Origin: a candidate division CPR3 bacterium 4484_211
GTDB lineage: Bacteria > Patescibacteriota > 4484-211
Assembly (NCBI GenBank): GCA_002084955.1
Contig: MZGJ01000006.1
Location: forward strand, 2,027-66,026
Direction of reading: 5' to 3'
Length of the DNA: 64,000 nt
The notes below the pieces were generated by a model. That model was not told the DNA's origin, did not search any database, and saw nothing but the letters and a program-made list of their open reading frames with translations. Positions 8,703-64,000 of the stretch are shown in pieces. The translations under genes and the position numbers were made by a program. Positions within the stretch are counted from its first letter, which is position 1. The number at the start of each line of letters is the position of its first letter.

Positions 8703-9770
8703 ATGCGTCTGGCAATTAATGGATTCGGCCGTATTGGCCGGACAGTCTTAAAGGTAATTCTTTCCCGGGGCGCTTGGGGAAGGGTGAGGGTCAGCTCCCG
8801 CATTAATCATGATCGGCTGGAGCTGGCGGCGATAAACAGCCGCAGTGGGCTAAATGAAACTGTCCCCTATCTTTTTAAATACGATACAGTTTATGGCTCA
8901 TATCCGGCCGAGGTGGGGATTTCTCCCGATGGCGGGTCTTTGCGTATTGACGGCCGGGATTATCTTTTTTTGGCCGAATCTGATCCCGGGAAGCTGCCCT
9001 GGAAAAATTTGGGAGTGGATGTGGTTTTGGAATGCACCGGGGCCTTTACGGAGTTTAACAAAGCTCAGGCTCACCTAAGGGCCGGTGCCAAGAAGGTAAT
9101 TATTTCAGCTAATGGCAAGGGGGAGGGTTTAACTTTGGTGCAGGGCACCAAGGCTTTTGAGAAATTTTTGTCCCAAAAAGATAACTATCGCGTGATCTCC
9201 AATGCTTCCTGTACCACTAACTGCGCTTCTCCGATAATACAGCTTTTGCATGACCATTTTCATGTGCTTAAAGCGCAGATGATCACCGTTCATGCGGTAA
9301 CTTCTACACAGAGTTTGGTTGATGACGCTAATAAAAATTTGCGCCGGTCGCGGGCGGCTTTTCAATCAATTATTCCTCAGCCAACGGGGGCGGCGGTGGC
9401 GGTAACTAGGGTTATTCCAGAGCTGGAGGGTCGAGTGAGCGGTTCGGCTTTTCGGGTGCCGGTAATTTGCGGCTCGGTCTTGGAAATTGTTGCCCAGATA
9501 GAAAAAGAAACCACGGCGGAAGAAGTTAATCAAGTTTTTAAAACAGCGGCCGCCGGCGAGCTTAAAGGAATTATCGCTGTCAGCGATGGCGGGCTGGTTT
9601 CGTCTGATGTTATCGGGTCGCCGGCATCGGCTACCGTAGACCTTCCCTTAACAGAAGTTTTGGATCTCCCCCATGTGGTTGACGAAAATCTTATTAAGGT
9701 GGTGGCCTGGTATGATAACGAGTACGGTTATGCTTGCCGGCTGGTGGAACTGGCTCAGGCGGTGTTATGA
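8703..9770 (+). CDS. gap: glyceraldehyde-3-phosphate dehydrogenase
   Basis: INGFGRIGR NAD site, SNASCTTNCASP catalytic Cys motif. Confidence 0.9.
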   Translation: MRLAINGFGRIGRTVLKVILSRGAWGRVRVSSRINHDRLELAAINSRSGLNETVPYLFKYDTVYGSYPAEVGISPDGGSLRIDGRDYLFLAESDPGKLPWKNLGVDVVLECTGAFTEFNKAQAHLRAGAKKVIISANGKGEGLTLVQGTKAFEKFLSQKDNYRVISNASCTTNCASPIIQLLHDHFHVLKAQMITVHAVTSTQSLVDDANKNLRRSRAAFQSIIPQPTGAAVAVTRVIPELEGRVSGSAFRVPVICGSVLEIVAQIEKETTAEEVNQVFKTAAAGELKGIIAVSDGGLVSSDVIGSPASATVDLPLTEVLDLPHVVDENLIKVVAWYDNEYGYACRLVELAQAVL

Positions 9771-11641
9771 ACCCCATTCTTTCTTCCCTTAATCCTCAAC
9801 AACGAAAAGCGGCTCGATGCATCAACGGACCAAGTCTTATCTTGGCGGGCGCCGGGAGCGGCAAAACTAGGGTTTTAACCCACCGGGCTGCCTATCTTAT
9901 TGATCAGGGAGTCTCCCCGCGCAATATCCTTTTGATTACCTTTACCAATAAAGCCGCCAATGAGATGAAAGAGCGCGTTTTTCGTCTGGTAGATGTTCAC
10001 GAGAAACCGCATATGGGGACTTTTCATGCCACCTGTGCCCGCATTTTACGTCAGCAGGCGGCGCAGGTTGGTCTGCCTCCCAACTATCTTATTTATGACC
10101 AAGCGGATCAACTGGCCGTTGTTCGCCAAGCGATGAAAAAGTTAAAGTTATCGCCTAAGGAGGTTAACCCGGCGGCAGTTAGAGGGATGATTGCCTCGGC
10201 TAAATGTGAGTTGTTGTCGCCGAGCGACTACAGCCGTTTGGCGTACGGGCCTTACCAGAAAAAAACGGCCGAAATTTATCCGCTTTATCAAGAAATTATG
10301 TCCGAAAATGAGGCCCTGGATTTTGGGGATCTTTTAATGAAAACGGTTAATTTACTTAAGGCGAATCCTCAAGTTCGCCGGGTCTATCAGGACCTTTTTT
10401 TGTTTGTGATGGTAGATGAATATCAGGATACCAATAAAGCGCAGTATGAATTCACCAAATTGGTGGCGGGAGGCAGGAAAAACTTATGTGTTGTTGGTGA
10501 CTGCAGTCAGAGTATTTATGCTTTTCGCGGGGCTAATTTGGGAAATATTTTGCGTTTTAAAACTGATTTTCCTCAAGCTCGGGTTTTTAATTTAGACCAG
10601 AATTATCGTTCCACTCAGATTATTTTGGATGCGGCCACCGAGATTATTAAGCCCAATAAGTCGGTTCATCCCGTTTTGCATTTGTGGACAAAGAATAAAA
10701 AAGGAAGCCCAATTGTTGTTTATCGGGCAATTGACGAAATAGATGAAGCCTTGTTTGTTATCTACCAGATTCAAAAATTGCGCTCGGTGGATTTGGATGA
10801 GTTTGCGGTCTTGTACCGCACCAATGCGCAGTCCAGGGTTTTAGAGGAGGCCTTTCTGCAGGCTAAGATACCCTATCGGTTAATCGGGGGAGTTCATTTT
10901 TATGAACGCAGGGAAGTTAAGGATATTGTGGCCTATCTTAGGTACATCCTTAATCCCAAGGACTTGGTTAGTTTTAAGCGTATTGTTAATACCCCTCCCC
11001 GCGGCATTGGTCCGGTGACTCTAAAAAAGGGAGGAGATAGACTGGATAAATTCATCAGTTTGATTAAACAACTGCGGGCCGAAGCTCATAAAAGGAGCGT
11101 CTCTGATCTGCTGGATTATTTGCTGGCCGAGATTAAGTTTAAGGAATATTTGGATGATGGAACACGGGAAGGTTTCGCTCGGTGGGAGAATGTTTTAGAA
11201 TTGAAATCCCTGGCTCAAAGTTTTTTGGAATTGCCGCCGTGGGACTCGTTGGTTTCTTTTTTGGAAAATGTAGCTCTTATGGAAAAAACGGAGGTGGCCA
11301 GCTTTCAGAATCGGAATGAGGTGCTCCCCCAAAAAGTGCCGGCGGTAAATTTGATGACTCTCCATGCGGCCAAGGGGCTGGAGTTTACCACTGTGTTTAT
11401 TGTAGGGATGGAAGAGGGTTTACTGCCTCATATTCAGTCGATGATGGAAAAAGAGAAACTGGAAGAAGAACGGCGGTTGGCCTATGTGGGAATTACCCGA
11501 GCTAAAGAAAGGGTGTTTTTGGTGCATACACAAAGCCGTCTTTATTTTGGCCAGCGGAGAATTTTTCCTCCCTCGCGCTTTTTGGAAGACATCCCCGAAA
11601 AGCTGGTGGAGGTGGAGGGAGCCGGGACAGCGAGTGGGTAG
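9767..11641 (+). CDS. uvrD: UvrD/PcrA-family ATP-dependent DNA helicase
   Basis: AGAGSGKTRVLTHRAAYLI (motif I), DEYQDTN (motif II), the remaining SF1 motifs present; ATGA overlap with the gap stop. Confidence 0.85.
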   Translation: MNPILSSLNPQQRKAARCINGPSLILAGAGSGKTRVLTHRAAYLIDQGVSPRNILLITFTNKAANEMKERVFRLVDVHEKPHMGTFHATCARILRQQAAQVGLPPNYLIYDQADQLAVVRQAMKKLKLSPKEVNPAAVRGMIASAKCELLSPSDYSRLAYGPYQKKTAEIYPLYQEIMSENEALDFGDLLMKTVNLLKANPQVRRVYQDLFLFVMVDEYQDTNKAQYEFTKLVAGGRKNLCVVGDCSQSIYAFRGANLGNILRFKTDFPQARVFNLDQNYRSTQIILDAATEIIKPNKSVHPVLHLWTKNKKGSPIVVYRAIDEIDEALFVIYQIQKLRSVDLDEFAVLYRTNAQSRVLEEAFLQAKIPYRLIGGVHFYERREVKDIVAYLRYILNPKDLVSFKRIVNTPPRGIGPVTLKKGGDRLDKFISLIKQLRAEAHKRSVSDLLDYLLAEIKFKEYLDDGTREGFARWENVLELKSLAQSFLELPPWDSLVSFLENVALMEKTEVASFQNRNEVLPQKVPAVNLMTLHAAKGLEFTTVFIVGMEEGLLPHIQSMMEKEKLEEERRLAYVGITRAKERVFLVHTQSRLYFGQRRIFPPSRFLEDIPEKLVEVEGAGTASG

Positions 11642-17068: not shown

Positions 17069-17213
17069 CACTGAGATTGTTTTAATGGAGTTTGGTTTTA
17101 GCATTTTTAGCATGTTTTTCCTTTGGAGGATGGATTGCAAATATCCAACTTAATTGTAATAGCGCACTCTTGCCGTGTACCCTTGCGGCACTGCAGTTAG
17201 TGCGCGACTAGAA

Positions 17214-17244
17214 GGGGTGACACCCTCTTTGAGGGTGTCACCCC
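17214..17244. repeat. 31-nt perfect palindrome GGGGTGACACCCTCTTTGAGGGTGTCACCCC (module P)
   Basis: Other copies at 18424-18454, 34404-34433 and 50792-50822; degenerate half at 55714-55735. Confidence 0.7.
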
Positions 17245-17450
17245 ATTCAAATAATTATCACTGCGGCCGGTGTGTGCTCTGATCGCAGACTAACCGCAGT
17301 ACCATTCGGTGCATGGCAAGAGTTTGCTGTTACGGTTAAATTTTGAGATTATGTTCTGGCCGTTTTAAAAATAGGTGCCTGGTAATTGGAGTTTGCTGAG
17401 GTGAATGCTAAATCCTAAAAGTGTAAAACTTTTATGGTAGAATTCTTTAT

Positions 17451-50783: not shown

Positions 50784-50791
50784 GAGTGAAA

Positions 50792-50895
50792 GGGGTGACA
50801 CCCTCTTTGAGGGTGTCACCCCATCTAAGCGTGCATCAACCGCGGTACCACAGGGGTACACGGCAAGAGTGCGCTATTACAATTAATTTGGACAT
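50792..50895. repeat. module P (50792-50822) plus module H rc (50826-50895) between divergent glycosylation genes
   Basis: Sequence identity to other copies; the palindrome lies 9 nt upstream of the GT4 start codon. Confidence 0.65.
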
Positions 50896-50934
50896 TTATA
50901 ACCCGCCTATAATTTTACTGTACTTTGCTACAAT

Positions 50935-52035
50935 ATGTCCATGCGTGCTACTTCCAAGAAGGTGTTTTTTATTTTAGCCCTTGCGTGGCTGCTGTTTTGT
51001 TGCTCTATCTATTTCATTGCCCGCCCTTTTTTTCTTGAGATAGTTCCTCTTTTGGTTCTCGTTTTAATTGTCTCTAGAGGAATTAAGCCAAAGTTTATCA
51101 TCAGTGTTCTACATTTAACTTTGGTTGGCTTATTTGGGGCGGTGTTTCTGTCTTTAATGTATGGAGTAATGGACAAGCAGTTGATGCACTTTGGTTTTAT
51201 CGCTTTTATTTCTGCAATATGTAAATCTTTGTCTGTTACGATTCTGGGAATAACTGTTATCACGGGCTTGGTTGCGGGACTTGGCAGTAAAGTCCTTTCT
51301 AAATTTTGTTTTAAATGCGAGTCTGGTTTAGGGCAGTTTTTGATCTCTATTGGGTTGGGGATCGGTATTGTGATTAATTTTGGCTTTTTTTTGGCTTACT
51401 TTAAAATTCTTAAACTTCCCGTGGTGATATTTCTTGTCGTTGGCCTATTTTACCTGTCTAGAAAAGAAATAGGGTCGTTTTTTAATAAAATAGCTAGGGC
51501 AAAAATTAGGGTAAAGGGAGATCTTCAGGTTGTTCTATTCTTCTCCGTTTTTATTCTCGTAATTTCACACCTTGTTACCAAGTTGAGAGGTTTCCCGTTG
51601 GAGTTTGATAGTCTGTCGCTGTATGCCAATACCGCCAAGAACCTGGCTTTAACCGGCAGGCTGCCCCAAGCCTGGTCTTTTCCTTTTGGGATTGAACTAT
51701 TTATGGGGTTTAATTGGCTTTTGTTTGGGGCGGGGACTGCCTTGACGATAAACAGTTTGCTTGGCTTGTTAAGTGTTTTGGCCATTTATCTAATTGCCAG
51801 GAAATTCGTTGGTTATAATTTTGCCTTGTTCCCGTCAATCTTTTTTTATACTACCTTTGCCGTGGCTCAGCTGACCTATTTTGACGACAAAGTTGACCTG
51901 GGAATTCTGTTCTTTGGGGTTCTGTCGGTTTATGCATTTCTGCAGTGGCATACTCTTCACCGCCGCAGGATATCCATCAAATTAGAACCGCGGTACTGTC
52001 TAACCGCGGGGAAAGGACGGATTTATGTGAAATAA
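50935..52035 (+). CDS. polytopic membrane protein, GT-C (ArnT/PMT)-like candidate
   Basis: About 11 TM helices; position in the glycosylation cluster. Confidence 0.35.
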   Translation: MSMRATSKKVFFILALAWLLFCCSIYFIARPFFLEIVPLLVLVLIVSRGIKPKFIISVLHLTLVGLFGAVFLSLMYGVMDKQLMHFGFIAFISAICKSLSVTILGITVITGLVAGLGSKVLSKFCFKCESGLGQFLISIGLGIGIVINFGFFLAYFKILKLPVVIFLVVGLFYLSRKEIGSFFNKIARAKIRVKGDLQVVLFFSVFILVISHLVTKLRGFPLEFDSLSLYANTAKNLALTGRLPQAWSFPFGIELFMGFNWLLFGAGTALTINSLLGLLSVLAIYLIARKFVGYNFALFPSIFFYTTFAVAQLTYFDDKVDLGILFFGVLSVYAFLQWHTLHRRRISIKLEPRYCLTAGKGRIYVK

Positions 52036-52937
52036 CTGAAGCGATGGCCCAATGTAAGAGAGAAATTAAATTGGGAGATTATGGGTATTACTTTTACCCC
52101 CAATCTTGGGCAGACCATTTTAAAAGGCCGCTGAGACTGCTCGCTTTAACTAACAAGTCAGCTTGCACGGGACGAGCGTCAATTGATCCCCTTTATGTTG
52201 GACTTTTCCCTCTGGTGATTGTCTTGGCGCTGGAAGAAAAGAGTAAAAGATTAAGACTTCTTTTGGTAATTATTGCAGGCTATTTTATTTTCTGGTATCT
52301 GGTCCGCTCACAGATTCTGTGGTACGCTCTTCCGGGATTTGCCTTATTATCGGTAGTTTTTTTTACGGCAATACGTAAAGTTGTTCCGGCCAAAATTAAA
52401 CGGGTGTTTCTAATAATTGCCAGCGTTAGTATTTTAATTCATAGTGCTTTCTATGTGGTTAATAATGGTACATACTTTTTTTTACCCGGCAATGCAGATT
52501 GGAAGCTCCAGGAAAAAAGATTTCTTCTTGGGGACTTAAAAAAGGCTTCAGCTTTTGTGAATAAAGTGCTGCAGGTTAATGAGGATAAAAAGGTTTTTTT
52601 GCTCGGGAATAAACCTGGTGCCCACTTTTTGCCTCCTTATTTTATAAACAATAGTCAGGAAGTGGCAATTTACTCTAATACCTGTCAGTTAATTTTCCTG
52701 CCGGAACAGCGGTCAGATATAGCCGGTTTAAGAGACAAGTTAAAAGCGCGGAATGTGGAATATGTTTTGGCCAGAATTTCTCCTGAGATAAAACTTGACC
52801 TGTTTAACATTCCACAGGAGGTCGGGGGGGTGACTCCCTGTATCTTAGAGACTAAAAAAAATATTGATTTTTTTCTGCGGAGTTACGGGCAGATAGTTTA
52901 CCAAAATTCTAATTATGCAGTGTATAGGATAAGGTGA
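51945..52937 (+). CDS. membrane/extracytoplasmic protein; possibly the frameshifted continuation of the preceding gene
   Basis: Overlaps 50935-52035 by 91 nt in another frame; TM helices then a soluble domain, as in GT-C enzymes. Confidence 0.25.
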   Translation: MAYSSPPQDIHQIRTAVLSNRGERTDLCEITEAMAQCKREIKLGDYGYYFYPQSWADHFKRPLRLLALTNKSACTGRASIDPLYVGLFPLVIVLALEEKSKRLRLLLVIIAGYFIFWYLVRSQILWYALPGFALLSVVFFTAIRKVVPAKIKRVFLIIASVSILIHSAFYVVNNGTYFFLPGNADWKLQEKRFLLGDLKKASAFVNKVLQVNEDKKVFLLGNKPGAHFLPPYFINNSQEVAIYSNTCQLIFLPEQRSDIAGLRDKLKARNVEYVLARISPEIKLDLFNIPQEVGGVTPCILETKKNIDFFLRSYGQIVYQNSNYAVYRIR

Positions 52938-53442: not shown

Positions 53443-53633
53443 AAAAAAAGTATAGCATAGGTGAAACTTTGCAGATTACCGCAATGGGGAGTGGTTGATG
53501 AAATGAATAGCGACATAATGGCCAATAGATCAGTTATTAAAAGGTTCTCGGGATGATTGTTCTCGTCGGGATGATTGCTAAAAGATTTTCTCCCAATGGG
53601 CTCTCTGTGGGGATAGCCAATTTCCACTTATTG

Positions 53634-53727
53634 ATGATAGACTAGTTTATCATCACTGGGCTTACAGGCCGCCATAAAAGCTTTTCCCAAATTGTGTCTT
53701 AAATTGGTATGATAGACTAGTCTATCA
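53634..53727. promoter_or_regulatory. pair of 20-bp palindromes (53634-53653 with 1 mismatch; 53708-53727 perfect), 74 bp centre to centre
   Basis: Read directly. Confidence 0.6.
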
Positions 53728-54279
53728 TACTGGGTGGTTAGATAGTTTTTGAGAAGGCGGTGGGTTCTTTACATCTGTACACCTGGCCGCCTTTTAATAC
53801 CGGATCTTATTTAAAACGATTATCAAAACGATTATCAACGCAACGCTGGGTCTGGTTTTTTAAAAACTCTACCGCCTTAAGTTAAATTTAATTAAGCTTA
53901 TCTGTTTTGGGGATTTATTTTTTTTCGCTGGGGTTTTTGCTTTTTACCTGTTCTTAAAAATTTTGGGTTTTGGCAAAAGGGGGCTTTGTAGCTGTTTATT
54001 TTTCCTTTTGGCAGTACCTGTTTTGCTGGTCTATGTCCTGCGCCTCAATTGTGGTTAAACCTTTAGGGACTTTGGTTTGTGCTCTTTACCGGTCCTTTCT
54101 TGTCCGGATGCATTTTTTCTAACCTTAAATAAGGTAAAACAGAAATTTAGATTTGGAACCAAAGGGGGAGTCGTGGTAAGATGGGAGAGAAGTAGCGTAT
54201 TTCCAGATTTTATAGAGATTTGAGGCTTTTAAGAGGATGGGGTGTGAATGCCTAGCTTAGTTGCAGCAGGGGGTGTCGC

Positions 54280-54612
54280 TCCATTTAAGTGATTGTTGCT
54301 GTGATTATTGCGCGTGCAGATCGCAGACCAACCGCAGTACTATTCGGTGCATGGCAAGAGTCTGCTATTGCAAGTAAAGTGCAGTATTATGTCCCAGCTA
54401 TAATGGCAATAACCAAGCACCAAATTACAAACAAATTCAAAATTCAAATAACCAAAACTTTTGGACTGGGTTTGACATTTGGCATTTTTAACTTGCCGCT
54501 TTACGGCTATGCCCTTCTTCAAGAGCGCAGTCCTGCAAGAAAAATATATCCGCTTCCAAAGCGGTGGGTTTTTACAGTGGGTTTTTACAGTTAGATCTTG
54601 AAATTATGCCTC
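54280..54612. repeat. composite repeat: module H rc (54303-54375), AT-rich and ttgacatttggcattttta module, leader module R (54532-54612) with an internal tandem tgggtttttacag x2
   Basis: Matches 6600-6810 and 16700-16860. Confidence 0.65.
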
Positions 54613-54644
54613 AGCCATTTTTTAGAATCTATCAAAACTAAAAC

Positions 54645-55917: not shown

Positions 55918-56012
55918 ATGATAGACTAGTCTATCATCATAAAGCACTAACAAAGAATAAGTTCACTACTGTATCAAGCACTAACACCTGATATGATAGA
56001 CTAGTCTATCAT
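55918..56012. promoter_or_regulatory. pair of perfect 20-bp palindromes (55918-55937; 55993-56012), 75 bp apart, downstream of the TrpR-like gene
   Basis: Read directly. Confidence 0.6.
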
Positions 56013-56223: not shown

Positions 56224-56697
56224 CTAGTTTTTTTTCTCCAAATTTTTCTTAACTTCTCTTTTTCTTTTCAATTTAAGCAATTCACGTGCAGATTTTTCTA
56301 AAGCATATTTCGCGGCTAGAGAACCCAGCTTATGGGGGCCGGTAAATTGAGGTCCTTTTTGCATCTTCTTCTTTGCTTTCTGATCAATTTTAGAAATCTT
56401 CTCAACCACTTTCTCAAGACCACCTTCTCCATAATCCAAGATCTGTGCAACCCGGCCCACCGTCTGGTTGGTTACTTTTAACCGGTTGATAATTGTCCGG
56501 TAATCACAGCCCTCATAGAGCATTAAGGCTATCTGGAGCCGCTTGGCCAGCATGCGAATTTCCATCTTTGTAAAAAGGTCTTTTATAAAAGGCTCAAGTT
56601 CTTCACGATCTAGGCATAAATTAAAAGCATTGATTAAATTGTCAATGTAATATCGCATGAACTTATTTTCTACTTTGCGCGGTGAAAGCCTCGACAT
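56224..56697 (-). CDS. TrpR-like DNA-binding protein, YerC/YecD family
   Basis: LINAFNLCLDREELEPFIKDLFTKMEIRMLAKRLQIALMLYEGCDYRTIINRLKVTNQTVGRVAQILDYG matches the YerC/YecD TrpR-like pattern (helix-turn-helix near …TNQTVGRV…); basic C-terminal tail. Confidence 0.65.
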   Translation of the reverse strand: MSRLSPRKVENKFMRYYIDNLINAFNLCLDREELEPFIKDLFTKMEIRMLAKRLQIALMLYEGCDYRTIINRLKVTNQTVGRVAQILDYGEGGLEKVVEKISKIDQKAKKKMQKGPQFTGPHKLGSLAAKYALEKSARELLKLKRKREVKKNLEKKN

Positions 56698-56717: not shown

Positions 56718-56812
56718 ATGATAGACTAGTCTATCATCTTTAGGATAACAGGAAAATATAAAACCTGTCAACAATCATGAAAACCCCCTAGTATGATAGA
56801 CTAGTCTATCAT
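56718..56812. promoter_or_regulatory. pair of perfect 20-bp palindromes (56718-56737; 56793-56812), 75 bp apart, in the promoter region of the TrpR-like gene
   Basis: Read directly. Confidence 0.65.
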
Positions 56813-57040: not shown

Positions 57041-57793
57041 CTATCTTGACACTTCATAAAGTTGTACCAGCGGTTCTTCCCAACCAAAACAGGTTTCTTT
57101 GCCCGCCAGCTTTTTAAATGTTTTGATGCATTTTGGTTCAAGCTGGGCAAACTTTTCCAAAATGTCCACTACTTCACTCATAAATCCGCCAACAGTTCCG
57201 TCAGAATCATCAATGCCGCCAGTTTGTAATTTTCTGTCCAAACGCAGGAGCAAATTAACCAATAATTTCGCTGTTTGTTGGCTTGCCGGAAGTTTTGAAA
57301 CAATTGAAGTTAAACGCCTGCATCCTTCGGAAAGCGAGTCTTGGTAGGCGAACCAAGTTCGGGATGGGCCCCGATACGGTTTTATGTACCTCATTGCTAA
57401 AGTAATGGATTTTTTGACGGCGGCTAGTTCTTCTGCGGTTAGTTCTCCCGTCTTGCCACTGCAAACCGGCCTGCCTATCAATTCTTTTTCCTCTTTTTTC
57501 AGTGGTTTGCCGTTTTTAACCGCGTAAATGGCCACGGCGACCATATGTTTGCAAAGAATATTTTTTTGGCCAAGATAGCACTCACAATGGCCATAATCGT
57601 AGCGCCGGGCCTCCACGAAAACTCGGTAAGGTTTGGTGCCGAGGACAACAGCCGAGTAGGATCTGATTCCTTCTTCAAATTGAGTTACTTTTCCGCTTTC
57701 ATACAGCCCAACAGCTCTTTTAAAAGTCGGCTCATCGGTGGCAAACTTGATTTTGTCAAGATCGTAATCCGGCGGTTGAATGTTCTTTGTCAT
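57041..57793 (-). CDS. SWIM zinc-finger protein
   Basis: GHCECYLGQKNILCKHMVAV is a canonical CxCx(n)CxH SWIM motif; ATGA overlap with the upstream nuclease gene. Confidence 0.55.
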   Translation of the reverse strand: MTKNIQPPDYDLDKIKFATDEPTFKRAVGLYESGKVTQFEEGIRSYSAVVLGTKPYRVFVEARRYDYGHCECYLGQKNILCKHMVAVAIYAVKNGKPLKKEEKELIGRPVCSGKTGELTAEELAAVKKSITLAMRYIKPYRGPSRTWFAYQDSLSEGCRRLTSIVSKLPASQQTAKLLVNLLLRLDRKLQTGGIDDSDGTVGGFMSEVVDILEKFAQLEPKCIKTFKKLAGKETCFGWEEPLVQLYEVSR

Positions 57794-58548
57794 TTTTCTT
57801 TCTGTTTAATTAGTTGCCTATATTTACAGAATTCACAATCAGGGCTTGGGGCGGGAATATCCTCGCTTTCAAGACATTTTTTAATTTTAATAATTGTTGG
57901 TTCCACCCAGGAATCGTCGCCTTCGTGGGATAAAATCATCAACTCAAACTCCAGGCGGCCGTCAAATTTTGGTCGGTTTCGACCGGCATTGGCAAAAACA
58001 AAGTAGCCGGTCTTGTTGACCTTAAAGCCTTTTTGCCTAAAGATCCACTGATAGATTTCCAATTGTTTTTTATATCCTTGTTTATATTCATCATCCAAAG
58101 AAATTTCTTGACTGGTACTGGTGGATTTATAATCAACAATCAGGAGTTCTCCTTTTTTATTTACCCAAACATCATCAATAATTCCGCAGATTTCTAAATT
58201 GGTTGGCCGGTGAAGCGTTGAAGCGCCTTTGAAACGATAATGGTCATCCCGCCACTCAGGCAGGTCCGGATGATTAAAAGGAATTGCGTCTATTCCGTAT
58301 TGGTTCATCAATTCGTGCTTTTCTCCATTTTGCCGTAGAAGATCAAACTCGTTTTTTAAAAGTTGATCCACGGCGGAGTTTAGGGCGAATCCCGGCATGC
58401 TCGGCCGCCCCAAACCCAGTCTTCGATCTAAATAAAAACACCGCGGACATTCCAAGAATAGATCAATCTTAGAGCGACTAAGCTTAAACGGCTGCTTGGA
58501 GTTGGGATTATATCGAGATTTTTCTTTTCTCTGCTGGTATTTGTTCAT
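57790..58548 (-). CDS. Cas4/RecB-like PD-(D/E)xK nuclease with a predicted [4Fe-4S] cysteine cluster
   Basis: N-terminal …LSRSKIDLFLECPRCFYL (Cas4-type S.S…CPR motif); IDDVWV…ELLIVDYKST (D, E, K catalytic triad); C-terminal C-x12-C-x2-C (KKCLES…PDCEFCKY). Confidence 0.55.
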   Translation of the reverse strand: MNKYQQRKEKSRYNPNSKQPFKLSRSKIDLFLECPRCFYLDRRLGLGRPSMPGFALNSAVDQLLKNEFDLLRQNGEKHELMNQYGIDAIPFNHPDLPEWRDDHYRFKGASTLHRPTNLEICGIIDDVWVNKKGELLIVDYKSTSTSQEISLDDEYKQGYKKQLEIYQWIFRQKGFKVNKTGYFVFANAGRNRPKFDGRLEFELMILSHEGDDSWVEPTIIKIKKCLESEDIPAPSPDCEFCKYRQLIKQKEK

Positions 58549-58699
58549 TTCTTTATTTTACCACCCGCCTTCCAAAAACACAGCGCTATCTATAATCCCG
58601 AGACGCAGTGGAGATTTTACCTTAAGTGAAAATTTTACCTTAAAGGTACGAAGATTGACAAAATTAACAATTACGATAATATAGTATTAAAGCGTGTCC

Positions 58700-59039
58700 C
58701 AGGTCTGGGCGCCCGCTCTTTTTTATTATCAAATCTTCCTCAATAAATTCTTGTCAATTATTTTTATCAACTCTTTATTAGCGTTAGTAGCATTAGGGAC
58801 GGGGACAAAAATGATTGATAAATCAATAAAAAAGATTGGTATTTTTTAAATAATCTTAAACAACAAAGTTTAAAAACCAATAAAATAATTAAAAATAATA
58901 AGTAATAAAGGTAATAAGTAAAAAATCATAAAGAAATAAAAAATAGGCCAAAAATAAACTGATATATCAGTATTTTCTAGCCCCGTCCCTGAGTCCATCT
59001 TGATTTTTGAAAAATGTGCTTGTCGATAGCGACAATAAA
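58700..59039. other. AT-rich low-complexity boundary segment at the edge of the AT-rich island, with 10-bp GC inverted repeats AGGGACGGGG (58795-58804) and CCCCGTCCCT (58981-58990)
   Basis: Compositional break read by eye; simple AATAAGTAATAAAGGTAATAAGTAAAAAA repeats. Confidence 0.4.
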
Positions 59040-61601
59040 TTAACCCCAACTGTCAATCATAGCAATGAGGACATTCTTGATATTTTGATTTTTTGTTCTA
59101 GACATAGCTTTTAATTCTCTCTTCTTGGGCATATTATCTAATTGATTCCAAATCCATTTATTTTTATTTAAAAAATTTATATATTGAATCTTTTCATCTT
59201 GACCTACCTTTTTTAATTTATTATATAAATCTTCAAATATTCTTTTTGCTGAAACGCTATCGGGAGATAACGATAATAAATCCTGACGATCAATAATTTG
59301 TCCAATATTTTCTATTAAGATATCTTTCTTCTGATCTAAAATAACTTTCCAAAACTCCCCATTTTGTTTCAAAATTTTATTGTTAGCGAAATTAATAATT
59401 TCTAATAAAAAATGAAAATCAGTTACACTTTTTAAAGCTTTAACAATCTGCCTTTGTAGATCCTCCATATCGAAAGGCAACTTATCTATATTGTTTTTAG
59501 CCCAATTCCATACATCTTGATTTCTTTCCTGTATGGATTGAAAAATGTTTTCTTTTAAATTTTCTAATGACGTAGGGCTGTATTTATTAAGTAATTGTAG
59601 TCTTTTTTCACTCAAGTCAGAATTATTAATATCTGCTGTAAAATCATTTATTAATTTTTTTGATATATCCTGGAAATTACTTGTAACTATTTTTAAATCC
59701 AATTTTGTGAATATATCGCTCATTTTGTGCAAAGCGTCAGATTTGTTCTCATCATAATATGCCACCAATCTATTAAATATTATTGTGGAAGCGAAAATTC
59801 CAAATTTATTGTCAAAATTTAAATTGTTGATATCTTCTAATGTTAAATTAAATTTATTTAAATATGACCGGGTTTGTTTAATCTTAAAATTGTCCAGCCA
59901 TTGCCAATAAGCGTAATAAAACTCAACCTTTTCATCAACTGGTTGACTCTTAATATAATTAAAGTCATATTTCTGTAACCCTTCTAGAAACTTACTTTGG
60001 GGCAAAGTATCTGCATCTATATCGATCAAAGCTTTGATTAATGTCAAAAAAATATTTTTCTTTTCACTCAAATCAGTTGCTTCATCATTAAGTTGATAAA
60101 ATGCATCCAATGCTTCATTTAATTTTTTTCCTCCACTCAATAATAAAGACTGCTTAACATCATCTGAATTACCCTTTTTAAGATACTGTTTAAAATCTTC
60201 TGGCAAAGGGCCTCTGGAATCTCCAAAACTAGCATCAGCGGCAAAATATAAAAATGTCTTTATTGACTTTACAGCGGGGCCGTATTGATTGTGAAATCTC
60301 GGTTTTTCAAATAAAAATTTCTTTATAAAAAGAAGCTGGGCAATGGATAATTTTTCCTTAAATTTTTCTAATATTTTATCAATGTTTTTATTGTCTTGCT
60401 TTTGAACAGCATATTCTAGATTTGATAAAATTTCACTATTTTTTAAAATTTCCTCAAATAAAGGATTACATAAATCCTGTATCATTAAACTACGAATAAC
60501 AAGTAGTGGATTATCCTTTAGTTCTTGTAAATATTCTTTTTCTTTTCCGTTATCATTATTACTAATTTGATTATCTACAACTTTAAAGCTAAATAAGACT
60601 GTATCCAGAAATCTAATTATATGCCTAAAATTCTTTTCAAAATATAAATTTAAATAGTTTTTAAAAATAATTAGATCACCTTCATTAAAAATTCTTCTAA
60701 ATTCTTTTCTCTTTCCTATTTCATTGTTAATAAAGATATCTATCTCAATTTTTAATGGCAGTGGCAGACGCCAATAGACATTAAATATTTTTTTAAGAAA
60801 TCTTCTTCCTTCATCAATTTGTTCCGCAACACTTGAATTCGGCAATAACTCTATACCGAGATACCTTTCTAATACAGAATGATCTCCAGTAACAACAAAG
60901 GATAATTTTTTATTATCAAAAAAAGTCCTTAAATTGTCTAACGTATCTTTAGCAATGCCGGGTGTTACGCGGTCTAAATCGTCGACAAAAATAACGACCC
61001 TTTTATCTTTTATATTTTGAAGAACTTCGTTTAATTTTTCTTCAAACCTATCTAGGGTGCTAATTGCTTTGCTATTTTTCTGGGTAGAAATAAGTTTTCC
61101 TACAATTGCTAAAATCACAGGTATAAGGATAAGAGTTAAAATCCATTTTATTTTAAGAAATTTATATAAAATTTCTTGTGGGAAGTAAAAATAAACTATT
61201 ATTATCCAAATTAATATAAGCAAGACAAACAATAACCATCCAGGATGAATTCTACTTTTCGATTCATCATAGTAAAACTCCTCAATGAAATTTTTGTTAT
61301 TTATCCAGTTTCTTATTCTTTTTAGTATATTCGGTTGATAATATACAGATAATGATTTTATAAAATATCTTAAAAAAGAGATTTTATCCGTTGCGAATTT
61401 CCACGGATTTATCCATATTGGATCCTCAAATTCCCTTTTTTTCAATTCTTTAGCCAGCTCTTTTAAGAATGTTGTTTTTCCCTCGCCCCACTTACCAGAA
61501 ATGCCAAAAATATAAGACTCACTCTCATCATCTTTATTATGATTATTGCTGATAATTTCAGCTACGTGTTTTATAAAATTTTGCCTATTTTTTAATTCCA
61601 T
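59040..61601 (-). CDS. KAP-family P-loop NTPase (853 aa)
   Basis: Walker A GISGKWGEGKTTFLKEL; two TM helices inserted after Walker A (…GWLLFVLLILIWIIIVYFYF… and …WILTLILIPVILAIVGKLI), which is the KAP hallmark; Walker B VVIFVDDLDR; long helical C-terminal region; very AT-rich codon usage. Confidence 0.75.
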   Translation of the reverse strand: MELKNRQNFIKHVAEIISNNHNKDDESESYIFGISGKWGEGKTTFLKELAKELKKREFEDPIWINPWKFATDKISFLRYFIKSLSVYYQPNILKRIRNWINNKNFIEEFYYDESKSRIHPGWLLFVLLILIWIIIVYFYFPQEILYKFLKIKWILTLILIPVILAIVGKLISTQKNSKAISTLDRFEEKLNEVLQNIKDKRVVIFVDDLDRVTPGIAKDTLDNLRTFFDNKKLSFVVTGDHSVLERYLGIELLPNSSVAEQIDEGRRFLKKIFNVYWRLPLPLKIEIDIFINNEIGKRKEFRRIFNEGDLIIFKNYLNLYFEKNFRHIIRFLDTVLFSFKVVDNQISNNDNGKEKEYLQELKDNPLLVIRSLMIQDLCNPLFEEILKNSEILSNLEYAVQKQDNKNIDKILEKFKEKLSIAQLLFIKKFLFEKPRFHNQYGPAVKSIKTFLYFAADASFGDSRGPLPEDFKQYLKKGNSDDVKQSLLLSGGKKLNEALDAFYQLNDEATDLSEKKNIFLTLIKALIDIDADTLPQSKFLEGLQKYDFNYIKSQPVDEKVEFYYAYWQWLDNFKIKQTRSYLNKFNLTLEDINNLNFDNKFGIFASTIIFNRLVAYYDENKSDALHKMSDIFTKLDLKIVTSNFQDISKKLINDFTADINNSDLSEKRLQLLNKYSPTSLENLKENIFQSIQERNQDVWNWAKNNIDKLPFDMEDLQRQIVKALKSVTDFHFLLEIINFANNKILKQNGEFWKVILDQKKDILIENIGQIIDRQDLLSLSPDSVSAKRIFEDLYNKLKKVGQDEKIQYINFLNKNKWIWNQLDNMPKKRELKAMSRTKNQNIKNVLIAMIDSWG

Positions 61602-61604
61602 AAT

Positions 61605-64000
61605 TTAATTATTATTCTCAACAATCTTAATTTCTTCCTTTGTCAAGCCATAAAGTTTATAAACCAACTGGTCAATTTGTTTTTCGTATTCGCGGACTTT
61701 GGCTTGTTTGGCAGGGTTTTCTAAATAATCATCGTCTTTGGTAATGGCGAGGATTTTATCAACGAGGTCAATAAATAGTTTTTGTTCGTCTTGTGAAATT
61801 TTAATGATTGGAAGCTGTTCTATATAGATTGAAAAGTGTCTAATACCCCTTACTCCAAGCTGAGATGAAATCATCTTATAATACAAATTTATAAGAGAAG
61901 AATTGAGGATTGCGCATAAATACTTAACAGCATTCCCGGTTAAAAAATATGCGGTATTTGCAAGATAGTAACCATCTATGTCTAGAGAAAAAGTAAGGCG
62001 TTGTGCTATGTCGGTATAAACAATTTTTTCTTTTTCAAATTCTTGATGGTATGCAATATTATCTTGAGTTTCAAACCATTTATTACCTGTTTTTTTTCTA
62101 GCACCTTTTTTGCCGCTTTGTTCTAATCTTTGTTTTCCAAACGATAATAAGTAATTTTTCACTGCCGGATATTGATCTATATCAATATGTAAACTTGGAA
62201 AAGTAGCAATCAACCACAACCCAGCCCAGCGGTAGTAGTAGCGGCCAATGTCTCTGCCGCGAAGTATCGGTTTTAGAATTTCTTTGGATTTTGGATCTTC
62301 TCGGCACAAGTGCTCTTTGGTTGGCGTATCAATAATGAATGCTTTGTTAAAGCCGGTTTTAATTCCATAATTTATTTTTACAGCCCAATCTTTTAACGGC
62401 GTACCTGCCCGTTCAATTTTCTGTTTAATCTTTAGGGTTTTCTCATCCACCAAAGACCAGCCGCTATCATTAAGATGCTTAGAATTAATGTATTGCTGGT
62501 GTTCTGCTAAATAAGTAGAAAGATTTTCGCCGGTAAAATCGGGTTCTATATCTACAAACGGAACTTGATAACTTCCCACTGGAATATCCTTTTGTAAAAT
62601 AATCACATTAGTATCAACGGTGGCTTCAAAAACTTTATGTCCGTTGAAGTCAATGAGCTGAAGGATTTTTGTCTTTTCTTTGAAAAAACGTCTTAATTTT
62701 TCCCCATATTTTGCCCGCAACCACTTGTTGCTGGAGATAAATGCGAGAGTTCCTTTGTTTTCCAACAAATTGTAGCTTTTTTCATAAAAATATGTATAAA
62801 GGTCAGAAGTGGAGTTGTACACTTCATATTTTTGCAAAGGCGGTTTTTGATCTTTGATTTTCTCCTGCCTCACATACGGCGGGTTGGCGATGACTACATC
62901 AAACCCGCCCTTTTCATCAAAAACCTCATTGAAATTTAAGTGCCATTCAAAGTGGTCTTCTGGAGAAGTGTCTTTAATTTTTTCCAACTCTTGGACTTTT
63001 TTCTTTAGTTTTTTGACCTCTTTTGTTTCAATCTCTCCAAGAGTCAGGTTTTCAGGGCCTAAAGAAAATAAGCTTTTTTGAGCCTTTAAGTTAGCAAGCA
63101 AGTTCTTGCTTTGTTTAAGTTCTTTAGCTTTATCGTAATTAGCAATAAAAACTATTAACTTATTAATTTGATCTCTTAAGTTTTGCTTTCTTTTTCTATT
63201 AGTCGCTTCAAAATACTGATTTTTTAAATCGTTCAGTTTATCTATCAATTTATTTTTCTCTTGATCTGTCCCTTTTCTAACTAAATCAGGAGATAATAGT
63301 TCAATTAAACTATTGCCCTGCATAATTTTGTAATCAAGATTGGGAAGAGGTTTAATTCTTTTAATATCTTGTTCATCAACAATAAGTGAAAGCCAAAGCC
63401 TTAGTTTGGCAATTTCTACTGCTCCCAAATCAATGTCAACACCATAAAGAGATTTTTGAATGCAGTCTCTTTTTAGATCATAGAGAGAAACGTTCTTATT
63501 GAGAACAAAAGCCAGTCTTTTTCTTGCATTAACTATTTCATTTAGCATTCCTACTAAAAAAGCTCCGGATCCACAAGCCGGATCACATACAAAAATACTT
63601 TCTAGGGTATCATCTAATTCCTTTGCCTCTTTTTTCCGTAGATTCAAAATCGAACCATCAACAATATGGTTCTTTCTTCCTCCTTTCTTTCTAAATTTTC
63701 GATAATCTCTTTTTGTGATTGGCTTGGGATTAATCAAGGCATTAATCTTCTTTTTATCTAAGCAAGTTTGACTAATTAAGTAGTTGATTAGGCTTTGCTG
63801 GCACATATAGTGGACAATTTCTCTTGGCGTGTAGTAGGTGCCCTTTGATTTTCTATCCTTTACTTCCAGCAGGTTTTCAAACACTTTCCCCAACATTTCC
63901 GGGTCAACAGCAACCTCTTTATCAAGAGGTTCATCTTCTTTGACGGTGAAGTTATAGCGGTCAAAAACATCCAGTATTCCGGTTCCAGTATCTCCTTCTT
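61605..64000 (-). CDS. gamma-class N6-adenine DNA methyltransferase with a large C-terminal (TRD-like) extension; N-terminus outside the window (type IIG/ISP/BREX-PglX-like)
   Basis: LGKVFENLL…GTYYTPREIV (motif X), VCDPACGSGAFLVGM (motif I), VIANPPYVRQE (motif IV), then more than 400 aa; the frame stays open (no stop) from the annotated Met at 63896 to the window end at 64000, so the protein is longer. Confidence 0.8.
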   Translation of the reverse strand, partial: EGDTGTGILDVFDRYNFTVKEDEPLDKEVAVDPEMLGKVFENLLEVKDRKSKGTYYTPREIVHYMCQQSLINYLISQTCLDKKKINALINPKPITKRDYRKFRKKGGRKNHIVDGSILNLRKKEAKELDDTLESIFVCDPACGSGAFLVGMLNEIVNARKRLAFVLNKNVSLYDLKRDCIQKSLYGVDIDLGAVEIAKLRLWLSLIVDEQDIKRIKPLPNLDYKIMQGNSLIELLSPDLVRKGTDQEKNKLIDKLNDLKNQYFEATNRKRKQNLRDQINKLIVFIANYDKAKELKQSKNLLANLKAQKSLFSLGPENLTLGEIETKEVKKLKKKVQELEKIKDTSPEDHFEWHLNFNEVFDEKGGFDVVIANPPYVRQEKIKDQKPPLQKYEVYNSTSDLYTYFYEKSYNLLENKGTLAFISSNKWLRAKYGEKLRRFFKEKTKILQLIDFNGHKVFEATVDTNVIILQKDIPVGSYQVPFVDIEPDFTGENLSTYLAEHQQYINSKHLNDSGWSLVDEKTLKIKQKIERAGTPLKDWAVKINYGIKTGFNKAFIIDTPTKEHLCREDPKSKEILKPILRGRDIGRYYYRWAGLWLIATFPSLHIDIDQYPAVKNYLLSFGKQRLEQSGKKGARKKTGNKWFETQDNIAYHQEFEKEKIVYTDIAQRLTFSLDIDGYYLANTAYFLTGNAVKYLCAILNSSLINLYYKMISSQLGVRGIRHFSIYIEQLPIIKISQDEQKLFIDLVDKILAITKDDDYLENPAKQAKVREYEKQIDQLVYKLYGLTKEEIKIVENNN

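Follow-up and report, generated by a model that had tools for sequence, protein, structure and literature searches.

Cas4-like nucleases encoded outside CRISPR loci (solo-Cas4) are over-represented in candidate phyla radiation (CPR) bacteria and in DPANN, where they sometimes lie beside restriction-modification (R-M) genes; these solo genes have evolved mostly vertically, and their function is unknown (Hudaiberdiev et al. 2017, PMC5704561). One archaeal solo-Cas4 has been described as a [4Fe-4S], Mn/Mg-dependent nuclease that cuts both double- and single-stranded DNA (PMC12501428). A gene for a nuclease of related type (here called NUC) is directly followed by a gene for a SWIM zinc-finger protein (here called SWIM) in the 64,000-nucleotide stretch of candidate division CPR3 bacterium 4484_211 that is referred to as the window. 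An earlier note on this DNA had implied that the two genes form a functional pair and had named, beforehand, the finding that would speak against it, namely, that the genes are not conserved as neighbors elsewhere. No characterized nuclease-SWIM pair and no account of the CPR SWIM family were found in the literature. Because NUC and SWIM proved to be neighbors almost nowhere else, the implied pair was not upheld as a dedicated two-gene system, and NUC and SWIM are probably two independent, strongly conserved genes of Patescibacteria (CPR) that came to be adjacent by chance in one species. The juxtaposition is lineage specific: a pair of conserved hypothetical genes has come to lie beside a defense island that was inserted.

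Conservation of the adjacency was assessed from both genes. A nuclease-centered scan of one genome per species yielded 28 loci, 27 of which encode most of a NUC homolog (50 to 80% identity), and a SWIM-centered survey that combined a metagenome scan with contig look-ups yielded 83 distinct loci (individual loci are numbered with the prefix L). No SWIM homolog was present within flanks of up to 8 kb at any of the 27 nuclease-centered genome loci. Among loci with at least 800 nt of flank, NUC was directly upstream of SWIM in 0 of 51 SWIM loci, and SWIM was directly downstream of NUC in 0 of 24 NUC loci. These counts included the closest relatives. The gene following NUC encoded a HEAT_2 (HEAT-repeat) protein in L118 (NUC 82% identical), was a trypsin-like gene in L123 (80%), and was a short open reading frame (ORF) in L122 (80%), while SWIM was preceded by HsdR in L029 (SWIM 83% identical) and by unrelated small genes in L119 (79%). 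The pair was common only to L038 and L124, whose DNA matches that of the window at 98.4% and 99.9% identity, respectively, and which therefore represent the same organism. At two further loci, a divergent NUC (50 to 54% identity) was found upstream of SWIM at a distance of 2.0 to 3.3 kb, and the intervening genes were unrelated (PPDK_N/Rph-like and FtsK-gamma genes in L033; a gene without assignment and a caspase-like gene in L095). Two partner genes in the 793 kb of flanks surveyed correspond to the chance level for a single-copy gene if a genome of approximately 0.8 Mb is assumed.

The principal alternative holds that NUC and SWIM are functional partners: in a DNA-repair or foreign-DNA pathway extending across CPR, the SWIM protein would recruit or regulate the nuclease. 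Scrambling of gene order in CPR would explain why the genes usually lie apart, and an operon would have been preserved or re-created in the window. The two proteins are unusually and similarly conserved (64 to 83% identity) in the same group of organisms, both genes are often found downstream of R-M or defense genes, and their overlap in the window could give translational coupling. This partnership is nevertheless unlikely, given that adjacency was absent elsewhere even among the closest relatives, that the number of proximities equals the chance expectation, that no fusion proteins were seen, and that it is a divergent copy of the nuclease that lies near SWIM in L033 and L095.

Several observations weigh against the view that the two genes are independent. 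In all three proximities (the window, L033, and L095), NUC is upstream of SWIM and on the same strand. Both genes lie downstream of R-M or defense genes more often than might be expected, with type I specificity subunits (HsdS) encoded within 3 kb at 13 of 55 SWIM loci and R-M-type genes within 4 kb at about 5 of 23 NUC loci; the strength of this enrichment is uncertain. A few metagenome-assembled genomes with homologs are labeled Gammaproteobacteria, Pseudomonadales, or Bathyarchaeia (source labels as given). Joint function in trans is also compatible with the lack of synteny, because partners need not be encoded together, and a functional link between the proteins is given a slight chance. 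In one form of such a link, NUC and SWIM would be usually separate subunits of a single CPR-wide DNA-end or foreign-DNA pathway encoded beside R-M islands, with SWIM as a targeting or regulatory adaptor and the window as the only operon form; this proposal is quite unlikely.

The genes overlap by 4 nt at the junction GAA AAA TGA / ATG ACA, where SWIM starts in the +1 register, and the ATGA overlap on the minus strand that the earlier note described was confirmed. A 4-nt overlap is possible at 3 of the 31 same-strand junctions of the window, at approximately one-third of the window junctions the genes are no more than 16 nt apart, and the NUC homolog in L123 overlaps its unrelated trypsin-like neighbor, also by 4 nt. 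Since other junctions of the window are tight and NUC homologs overlap unrelated downstream genes elsewhere, the overlap is not special here and is no evidence of joint function; it would reflect tight gene packing rather than a nuclease-SWIM machine. The operon proposed from the overlap stands as probable: NUC and SWIM are probably cotranscribed in this species from a promoter in the 491-nt gap (58549 to 59039) that follows the KAP-family NTPase gene. The gap holds a promoter-like site upstream of NUC and a terminator-like hairpin behind the KAP gene (Table 1); all such sites are predictions from a consensus scan only. An 18-nt tandem direct repeat (AGTGGAGATTTTACCTTA / AGTGAAAATTTTACCTTA, positions 58607 to 58642) lies on the side of the promoter-like site that faces the NUC start codon, overlaps that site, and may be a regulator binding site, and no shared motif was evident by eye upstream of the NUC homologs in 27 other loci. 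At the compositional edge of the island, the AT-rich DNA that separates NUC from the KAP gene contains an imperfect inverted repeat of 31 nt whose ends are GC rich (AGGGACGGGG ... CCCCGTCCCT; 58795 to 58825 and 58960 to 58990); it could mark the border of the island or serve as a transcription terminator. Position 1 of L124 corresponds to window position 58581, so that this contig, assembled independently from the same organism, stops at the AT-rich edge, 33 nt upstream of the start of NUC, consistent with island DNA that is strain variable or poorly assembled.

NUC is a stand-alone RecB/Cas4-like PD-(D/E)xK nuclease by its match to Pfam PDDEXK_1 (PF12705; 58.6 bits, cut-off 22); it was placed in this superfamily by score and by a RecB-like fold. 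The motif order D, D-x-K, QxxxY is that of RecB-family nucleases, including the catalytic motif of Cas4 (D ... D/E-x-K ... QxxxY), and NUC has it, with the catalytic residues invariant in an alignment of 29 NUC homologs. The description of the protein as a Cas4/AddB-like nuclease was thus borne out at the family level. NUC is not a bona fide Cas4 by curated hidden Markov model thresholds, with 22.1 bits against Cas4 Pfam PF01930 (cut-off 22.7) and 39.3 against NCBIfam TIGR00372, far below its cut-off of 65. The cysteines of Cas4, AddB, and Dna2 follow the pattern C ... CxxCx5C. NUC lacks this pattern and instead has C34xxC37 (within the segment SRS...ECPRCFY, residues 22 to 39) followed by C225x12C238xxC241. 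The C-x12-C-x2-C cluster read earlier is therefore present in its spacing, and C238 and C241 are invariant, but C225 is only about 90% conserved and is Thr in one homolog.

The same features bear on whether NUC could be the adaptation Cas4 of a CRISPR-Cas locus that has since been lost. This origin is highly improbable: NUC scores under both curated cut-offs, its cysteine spacing differs, and the family is kept as a solo gene in many genomes and in unrelated contexts. The 64-kb window contained no CRISPR-like array, in agreement with the earlier note, and no Cas family was among the top families upstream of NUC at 23 loci. A split or fragmentary RecB/AddB gene was also considered and rejected, as the best 120 homologs are 202 to 269 amino acids (aa) long and the neighbors of NUC are the KAP NTPase and SWIM; the solo status of the nuclease was upheld by homologs that are all about 250 aa in length. 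The only UvrD-type helicase in the window (9734 to 11641) is 46 kb from NUC.

NUC shares its catalytic motif order with solo-Cas4 and other RecB-family PDDEXK_1 proteins (Cas4 SSO0001, Pcal_0546, the AddB nuclease domain, Dna2, Exo5, MGME1, and RecE), as well as a cysteine-bearing N-terminal helix with additional C-terminal cysteines, and like solo-Cas4 it is encoded outside CRISPR loci in small-genome bacteria. It differs from Cas4 in scoring under the curated cut-offs and in its invariant CxxC ... CxxC arrangement (C34, C37, C238, and C241), in which C225 is weaker. No relative was found when solved structures were searched by sequence with NUC. Relatives of this type are 5'-3' exonucleases or end- or flap-processing enzymes. 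The biochemical activities and cellular roles proposed here for both NUC and SWIM are drawn from sequence. By homology, NUC would be an Mg/Mn-dependent nuclease acting on DNA ends or flaps. C34 and C37, together with the C-terminal cysteines, could bind a metal or an Fe-S cluster, and the invariant CxxC ... CxxC set probably staples the N- and C-terminal helices together in this way; the cysteine spacing differs from the Cas4/AddB pattern, so that the cluster may be Fe-S or of another type. The most likely role of NUC would be general DNA-end processing (recombination, repair, or incoming DNA) in reduced genomes. DUF2130 proteins were encoded 2 to 4 kb upstream of NUC in L012, L021, L022, and L023 (Nealsonbacteria and Collierbacteria), and RecA, LexA-like S24 peptidases, SMC_N proteins, and RadC were each found near NUC in single loci; these neighbors are a weak hint of a DNA-repair neighborhood.

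The SWIM protein consists of an N-terminal module of helices, a beta-sheet, and the SWIM finger, followed by a C-terminal helical-repeat domain. Its match to Pfam SWIM (PF04434) is a marginal pass (20.5 bits, cut-off 19.6), and the canonical CxCx(n)CxH finger that had been recognized in it is present and invariant in 27 homologs. Further conserved features are the motifs Y-x-K-x-Y-x-GPS-x-WF-x-YQ and GG-x-DDS-x-G and the cysteines C111, C158, and C222. The N terminus matches the PADLOC candidate PDC-S62 at positions 8 to 95 of 566 (1.5e-15), and hhalign aligned SWIM with P0376 (545 aa) at 98.4% probability over 226 columns, spanning the first 276 residues of P0376. A full-length match to the approximately 566-aa PDC-S62 model was not obtained; SWIM is a homolog of the N-terminal half and not a full member.

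By these alignments, the CPR SWIM protein appears as the core half of the long, uncharacterized "SWIM zinc finger family" proteins (about 550 to 600 aa; P0376, WP_142831990.1 from Rhizobium, and WP_094579706.1 from Halorubrum). Homology spans nearly all 250 aa, with the SWIM finger, W-x-YQ, DDSDGT-G-F, and F-G-W/F in common, but the C-terminal half of the long proteins, a helical-repeat region of about 300 aa, is missing from the CPR protein, which makes up a separate and very tight family. With eukaryotic SWIM proteins (the ZSWIM8 substrate receptor, MEKK1, and Shu2/SWS1), SWIM has the finger module alone in common, and a sequence search of solved structures returned noise and a weak ZSWIM8 match only. 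SWIM fingers are reportedly paired with SNF2 helicases. No SNF2 helicase is encoded beside SWIM in the window, the only SWI2/SNF2 proteins within 3 kb upstream of 55 SWIM loci were three type I HsdR subunits, no helicase family was among the 25 commonest families downstream, and no helicase neighbor was present at two loci inspected in plasmid records. Nuclease fusions were likewise absent from the longer SWIM relatives (387 to 545 aa), which carry helix-turn-helix, DUF3201, or unassigned extensions. SWIM may thus be pictured as a cut-down long-family protein, a zinc-finger module on a short helical scaffold, and would most likely serve as a zinc-dependent binding or adaptor subunit for some partner; an adaptor role, or a recombination role like that of Shu2/SWS1, is an analogy only.

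Both genes are real; each has thousands of homologs (at least 7,985 for NUC and 1,884 for SWIM, with E values as low as 1e-142). Named sources were mostly Patescibacteria, including Portnoy-, Andersen-, Levy-, Roizman-, Moran-, Nealson-, Shapiro-, Collier-, and Chisholmbacteria and Kazan. At E values of 1e-30 or below, the SWIM family comprised 76 clusters at 50% identity, many of them fragments, among 1.84 billion representatives. Group I introns in the 16S rRNA gene are typical of CPR bacteria, and one SWIM-bearing contig (L074:2846-5039) has a 16S rRNA gene interrupted by such an intron, which supports the taxonomic placement of the SWIM family.

Across lineages, the NUC and SWIM proteins are 64 to 83% identical to those of the window, compared with 24 to 44% for other window proteins on the same contigs (only eight proteins); in the genomes of this comparison, NUC and SWIM themselves showed 64 to 70% identity. 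The GC content of both genes (0.42 to 0.44) is like that of the rest of the window, and across loci gene GC follows flank GC over a range of 31 to 55% (r = 0.85 for NUC and 0.67 for SWIM). Recent horizontal transfer as the source of the high identity was rejected on this basis, as the tracking of host GC argues instead for long residence and strong purifying selection. A phage-borne origin is unlikely because scans of 2.9 million viral contigs with both alignments detected no relatives of NUC or SWIM and a tblastn search of phage records detected no relatives of SWIM. Defense genes aside, neighbors were varied and largely housekeeping (pyruvate kinase, RecA, FKBP, SHOCT, and DsrE). NUC and SWIM look like long-resident genes under strong purifying selection.

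Defense genes were unevenly distributed around SWIM homologs. Within 3 kb upstream of SWIM at 55 loci, 137 ORFs included 13 for HsdS, 8 for Fic, 4 for ResIII, 3 for HsdR-type SWI2/SNF2, 3 for BrnT, and 2 each for RhuM, AbiEii, and NYN proteins. The commonest families within 3 kb downstream were SHOCT (9) and DsrE (6), with three integrases and three AbiEii proteins, and HsdS was absent from the top families on that side. This asymmetry is the firmest part of the association of SWIM with defense genes. R-M-type genes near NUC (HsdR, AlwI, DpnI, and a Schlafen-type helicase) were mixed with housekeeping genes, and most loci had no defense gene nearby.

In the window, the genes upstream of NUC form an AT-rich island encoding a KAP NTPase and a type IIG-like methyltransferase. 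The methyltransferase matches only the C-terminal two-thirds of type IIG models (e.g., positions 361 to 1060 of 1110), and its nuclease part may be missing or lie beyond the window end; the far border of the island is beyond position 64000. That these two genes, NUC, and SWIM constitute one multigene antiphage system is very unlikely. All four genes are on the same strand, the SWIM N terminus matches PDC-S62, KAP or IIG-methylase homologs recur in L048, L052, and L096 upstream of SWIM (no NUC intervenes), and in L118 NUC is preceded by genes for a HEPN protein, a Shedu-type protein, and a IIG enzyme. Against such a system, GC content steps sharply from 0.26-0.31 to 0.42-0.44 at approximately 58,500 to 59,000, the 491-nt gap contains the terminator- and promoter-like sites, and the upstream genes vary by locus (type I R-M, Fic, BrnT, AbiE, RhuM, and caspase, among others) while SWIM stays 64 to 83% identical; moreover, most loci are without a nearby defense gene and neither gene occurs on viral contigs. 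The suggestion of a defense neighborhood held in part, in that defense and R-M genes accumulate upstream of SWIM homologs, but NUC and SWIM themselves have core-genome GC content and are set apart from the island by the terminator- and promoter-like sites.

The AT-rich KAP/methyltransferase stretch fits a variable R-M, toxin, and defense region 5' of a conserved SWIM gene. It would be a separate insertion into a region, upstream of SWIM genes, where R-M and toxin genes would have landed repeatedly. Defense-island hotspots flanked by core genes have been mapped in Escherichia coli (PMC10121019). As in those hotspots, a conserved gene borders a variable set of R-M, toxin-antitoxin, and defense genes on one side. 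Unlike them, the SWIM pattern comes from metagenomic contigs of many species rather than one pangenome, and no integrase or att sites are defined. A weaker variant of the shared-pathway proposal would see in the SWIM gene a phylum-wide marker of an integration hotspot for type I R-M and other defense genes.

The coordinates of the pair and of surrounding features are given in Table 1. The remainder of the window is an ordinary small-genome chromosome (LepA, MurJ, a UvrD-type helicase, glycosyltransferases, a transfer-messenger RNA [tmRNA], and two tRNAs), and an Rfam scan of the whole window returned only the tmRNA and the two tRNAs, with no RNA gene near NUC-SWIM. SWIM is separated by a 343-nt gap from the downstream gene for a TrpR-like regulator, beyond which lies rmuC on the opposite strand.

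Table 1. Positions of the NUC-SWIM pair, of its sequence motifs and neighbors, and of an element downstream of SWIM homologs
Feature	Position	Strand	Basis or remark
NUC gene, 252 aa, ATG start	57790..58548	minus	ORF list of window
SWIM gene, 250 aa, ATG start	57041..57793	minus	ORF list of window
ATGA stop/start overlap of NUC and SWIM, 4 nt	57790..57793	minus	Read from sequence
NUC catalytic motifs D125 (GIIDD), D139-Y-K141 (VDYK), Q162xxxY166	58051..58176	minus	Invariant in 29-homolog alignment
NUC N-terminal Cys pair C34-P-R-C37	58438..58449	minus	Both invariant in 29-homolog alignment
NUC C-terminal cysteines C225, C238, C241	57826..57876	minus	C238 and C241 invariant in 29-homolog alignment
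SWIM finger C70-x-C72-x8-C81-x-H83	57545..57586	minus	Invariant in 27 homologs
Promoter-like site TTGTCA-18-TAAAAT	58632..58661	minus	84 nt upstream of NUC start; 10/12 consensus matches
Terminator-like hairpin just 3' of KAP NTPase gene	59020..59035	minus	Consensus scan; between island and NUC-SWIM
KAP-family NTPase	59040..61601	minus	Pfam/PADLOC; context, outside NUC-SWIM unit
Eco57I/type IIG-like methyltransferase	61605..63896	minus	Pfam/PADLOC; context, outside NUC-SWIM unit
AT-rich island (KAP NTPase and methyltransferase)	59040..63896	minus	GC 0.26-0.37; context
TrpR-like (YerC/YecD) regulator	56224..56697	minus	PF01371 3.5e-13, TIGR02531 1.6e-13; context
Promoter-like site of TrpR-like gene	56771..56742	minus	Consensus scan; in 343-nt gap after SWIM
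Element of about 300 nt	L041:4165-4500, L048:6495-6840, L049:1577-1965, L053:4577-4930, L064:1273-1599; also L042, L050		Downstream of SWIM homologs

A perfect 20-nt palindrome (ATGATAGACTAGTCTATCAT) occurs four times around the TrpR-like gene (55918 to 55937, 55993 to 56012, 56718 to 56737, and 56793 to 56812), as two pairs with 75-nt spacing, one on each side of the gene. The upstream pair overlaps the promoter-like site of this gene, and the four palindromes are probably operator sites of the regulator.

An element of about 300 nt that is not present in the window was conserved in seven SWIM loci, beginning 20 to 60 nt downstream of SWIM. It is open in several reading frames and has long conserved helices and hairpin insertions that vary; compensatory changes occur at four pairs, and an intrinsic terminator stands at its end. 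It carries strings like those of RNase P RNA (AAGTCCG, GGGTGCGGT, and GGCTTAC), and Rfam gave no match to it even at an E value of 0.1. The element may represent an RNase P RNA in reduced or divergent form, or else some other structured RNA.

Elsewhere in the window, the region from 50935 to 52937 differs from L124 (99.9% identical), which has 220 extra bases at the junction 51950/51951 and encodes one 740-aa PMT_2 glycosyltransferase where the window has two overlapping ORFs (366 and 330 aa); the discrepancy reflects a deletion, variation between strains, or a difference in assembly. Two copies of a 111-nt intergenic element (17139 to 17249 and approximately 50787 to 50897) are present in opposite orientations with about 85% identity (L124 alignment). 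A stretch of approximately 1 kb (53630 to 54640) that lies upstream of rmuC contains no ORF of more than 101 aa, matches nothing in Rfam, and holds two short perfect tandem repeats (53813 to 53838 and 54564 to 54591).

Confined as it is to one species, the pairing is of little importance as a "nuclease-SWIM system." The upstream flank of SWIM, as an apparent recurrent site of type I R-M, Fic, toxin, and other defense genes, could help to locate defense islands in CPR genomes. In these Patescibacteria loci, few proteins are as conserved as those of the uncharacterized NUC and SWIM families, which stand far above the neighboring genes, and this high conservation suggests that both may have important roles in the DNA metabolism of minimal-genome organisms.

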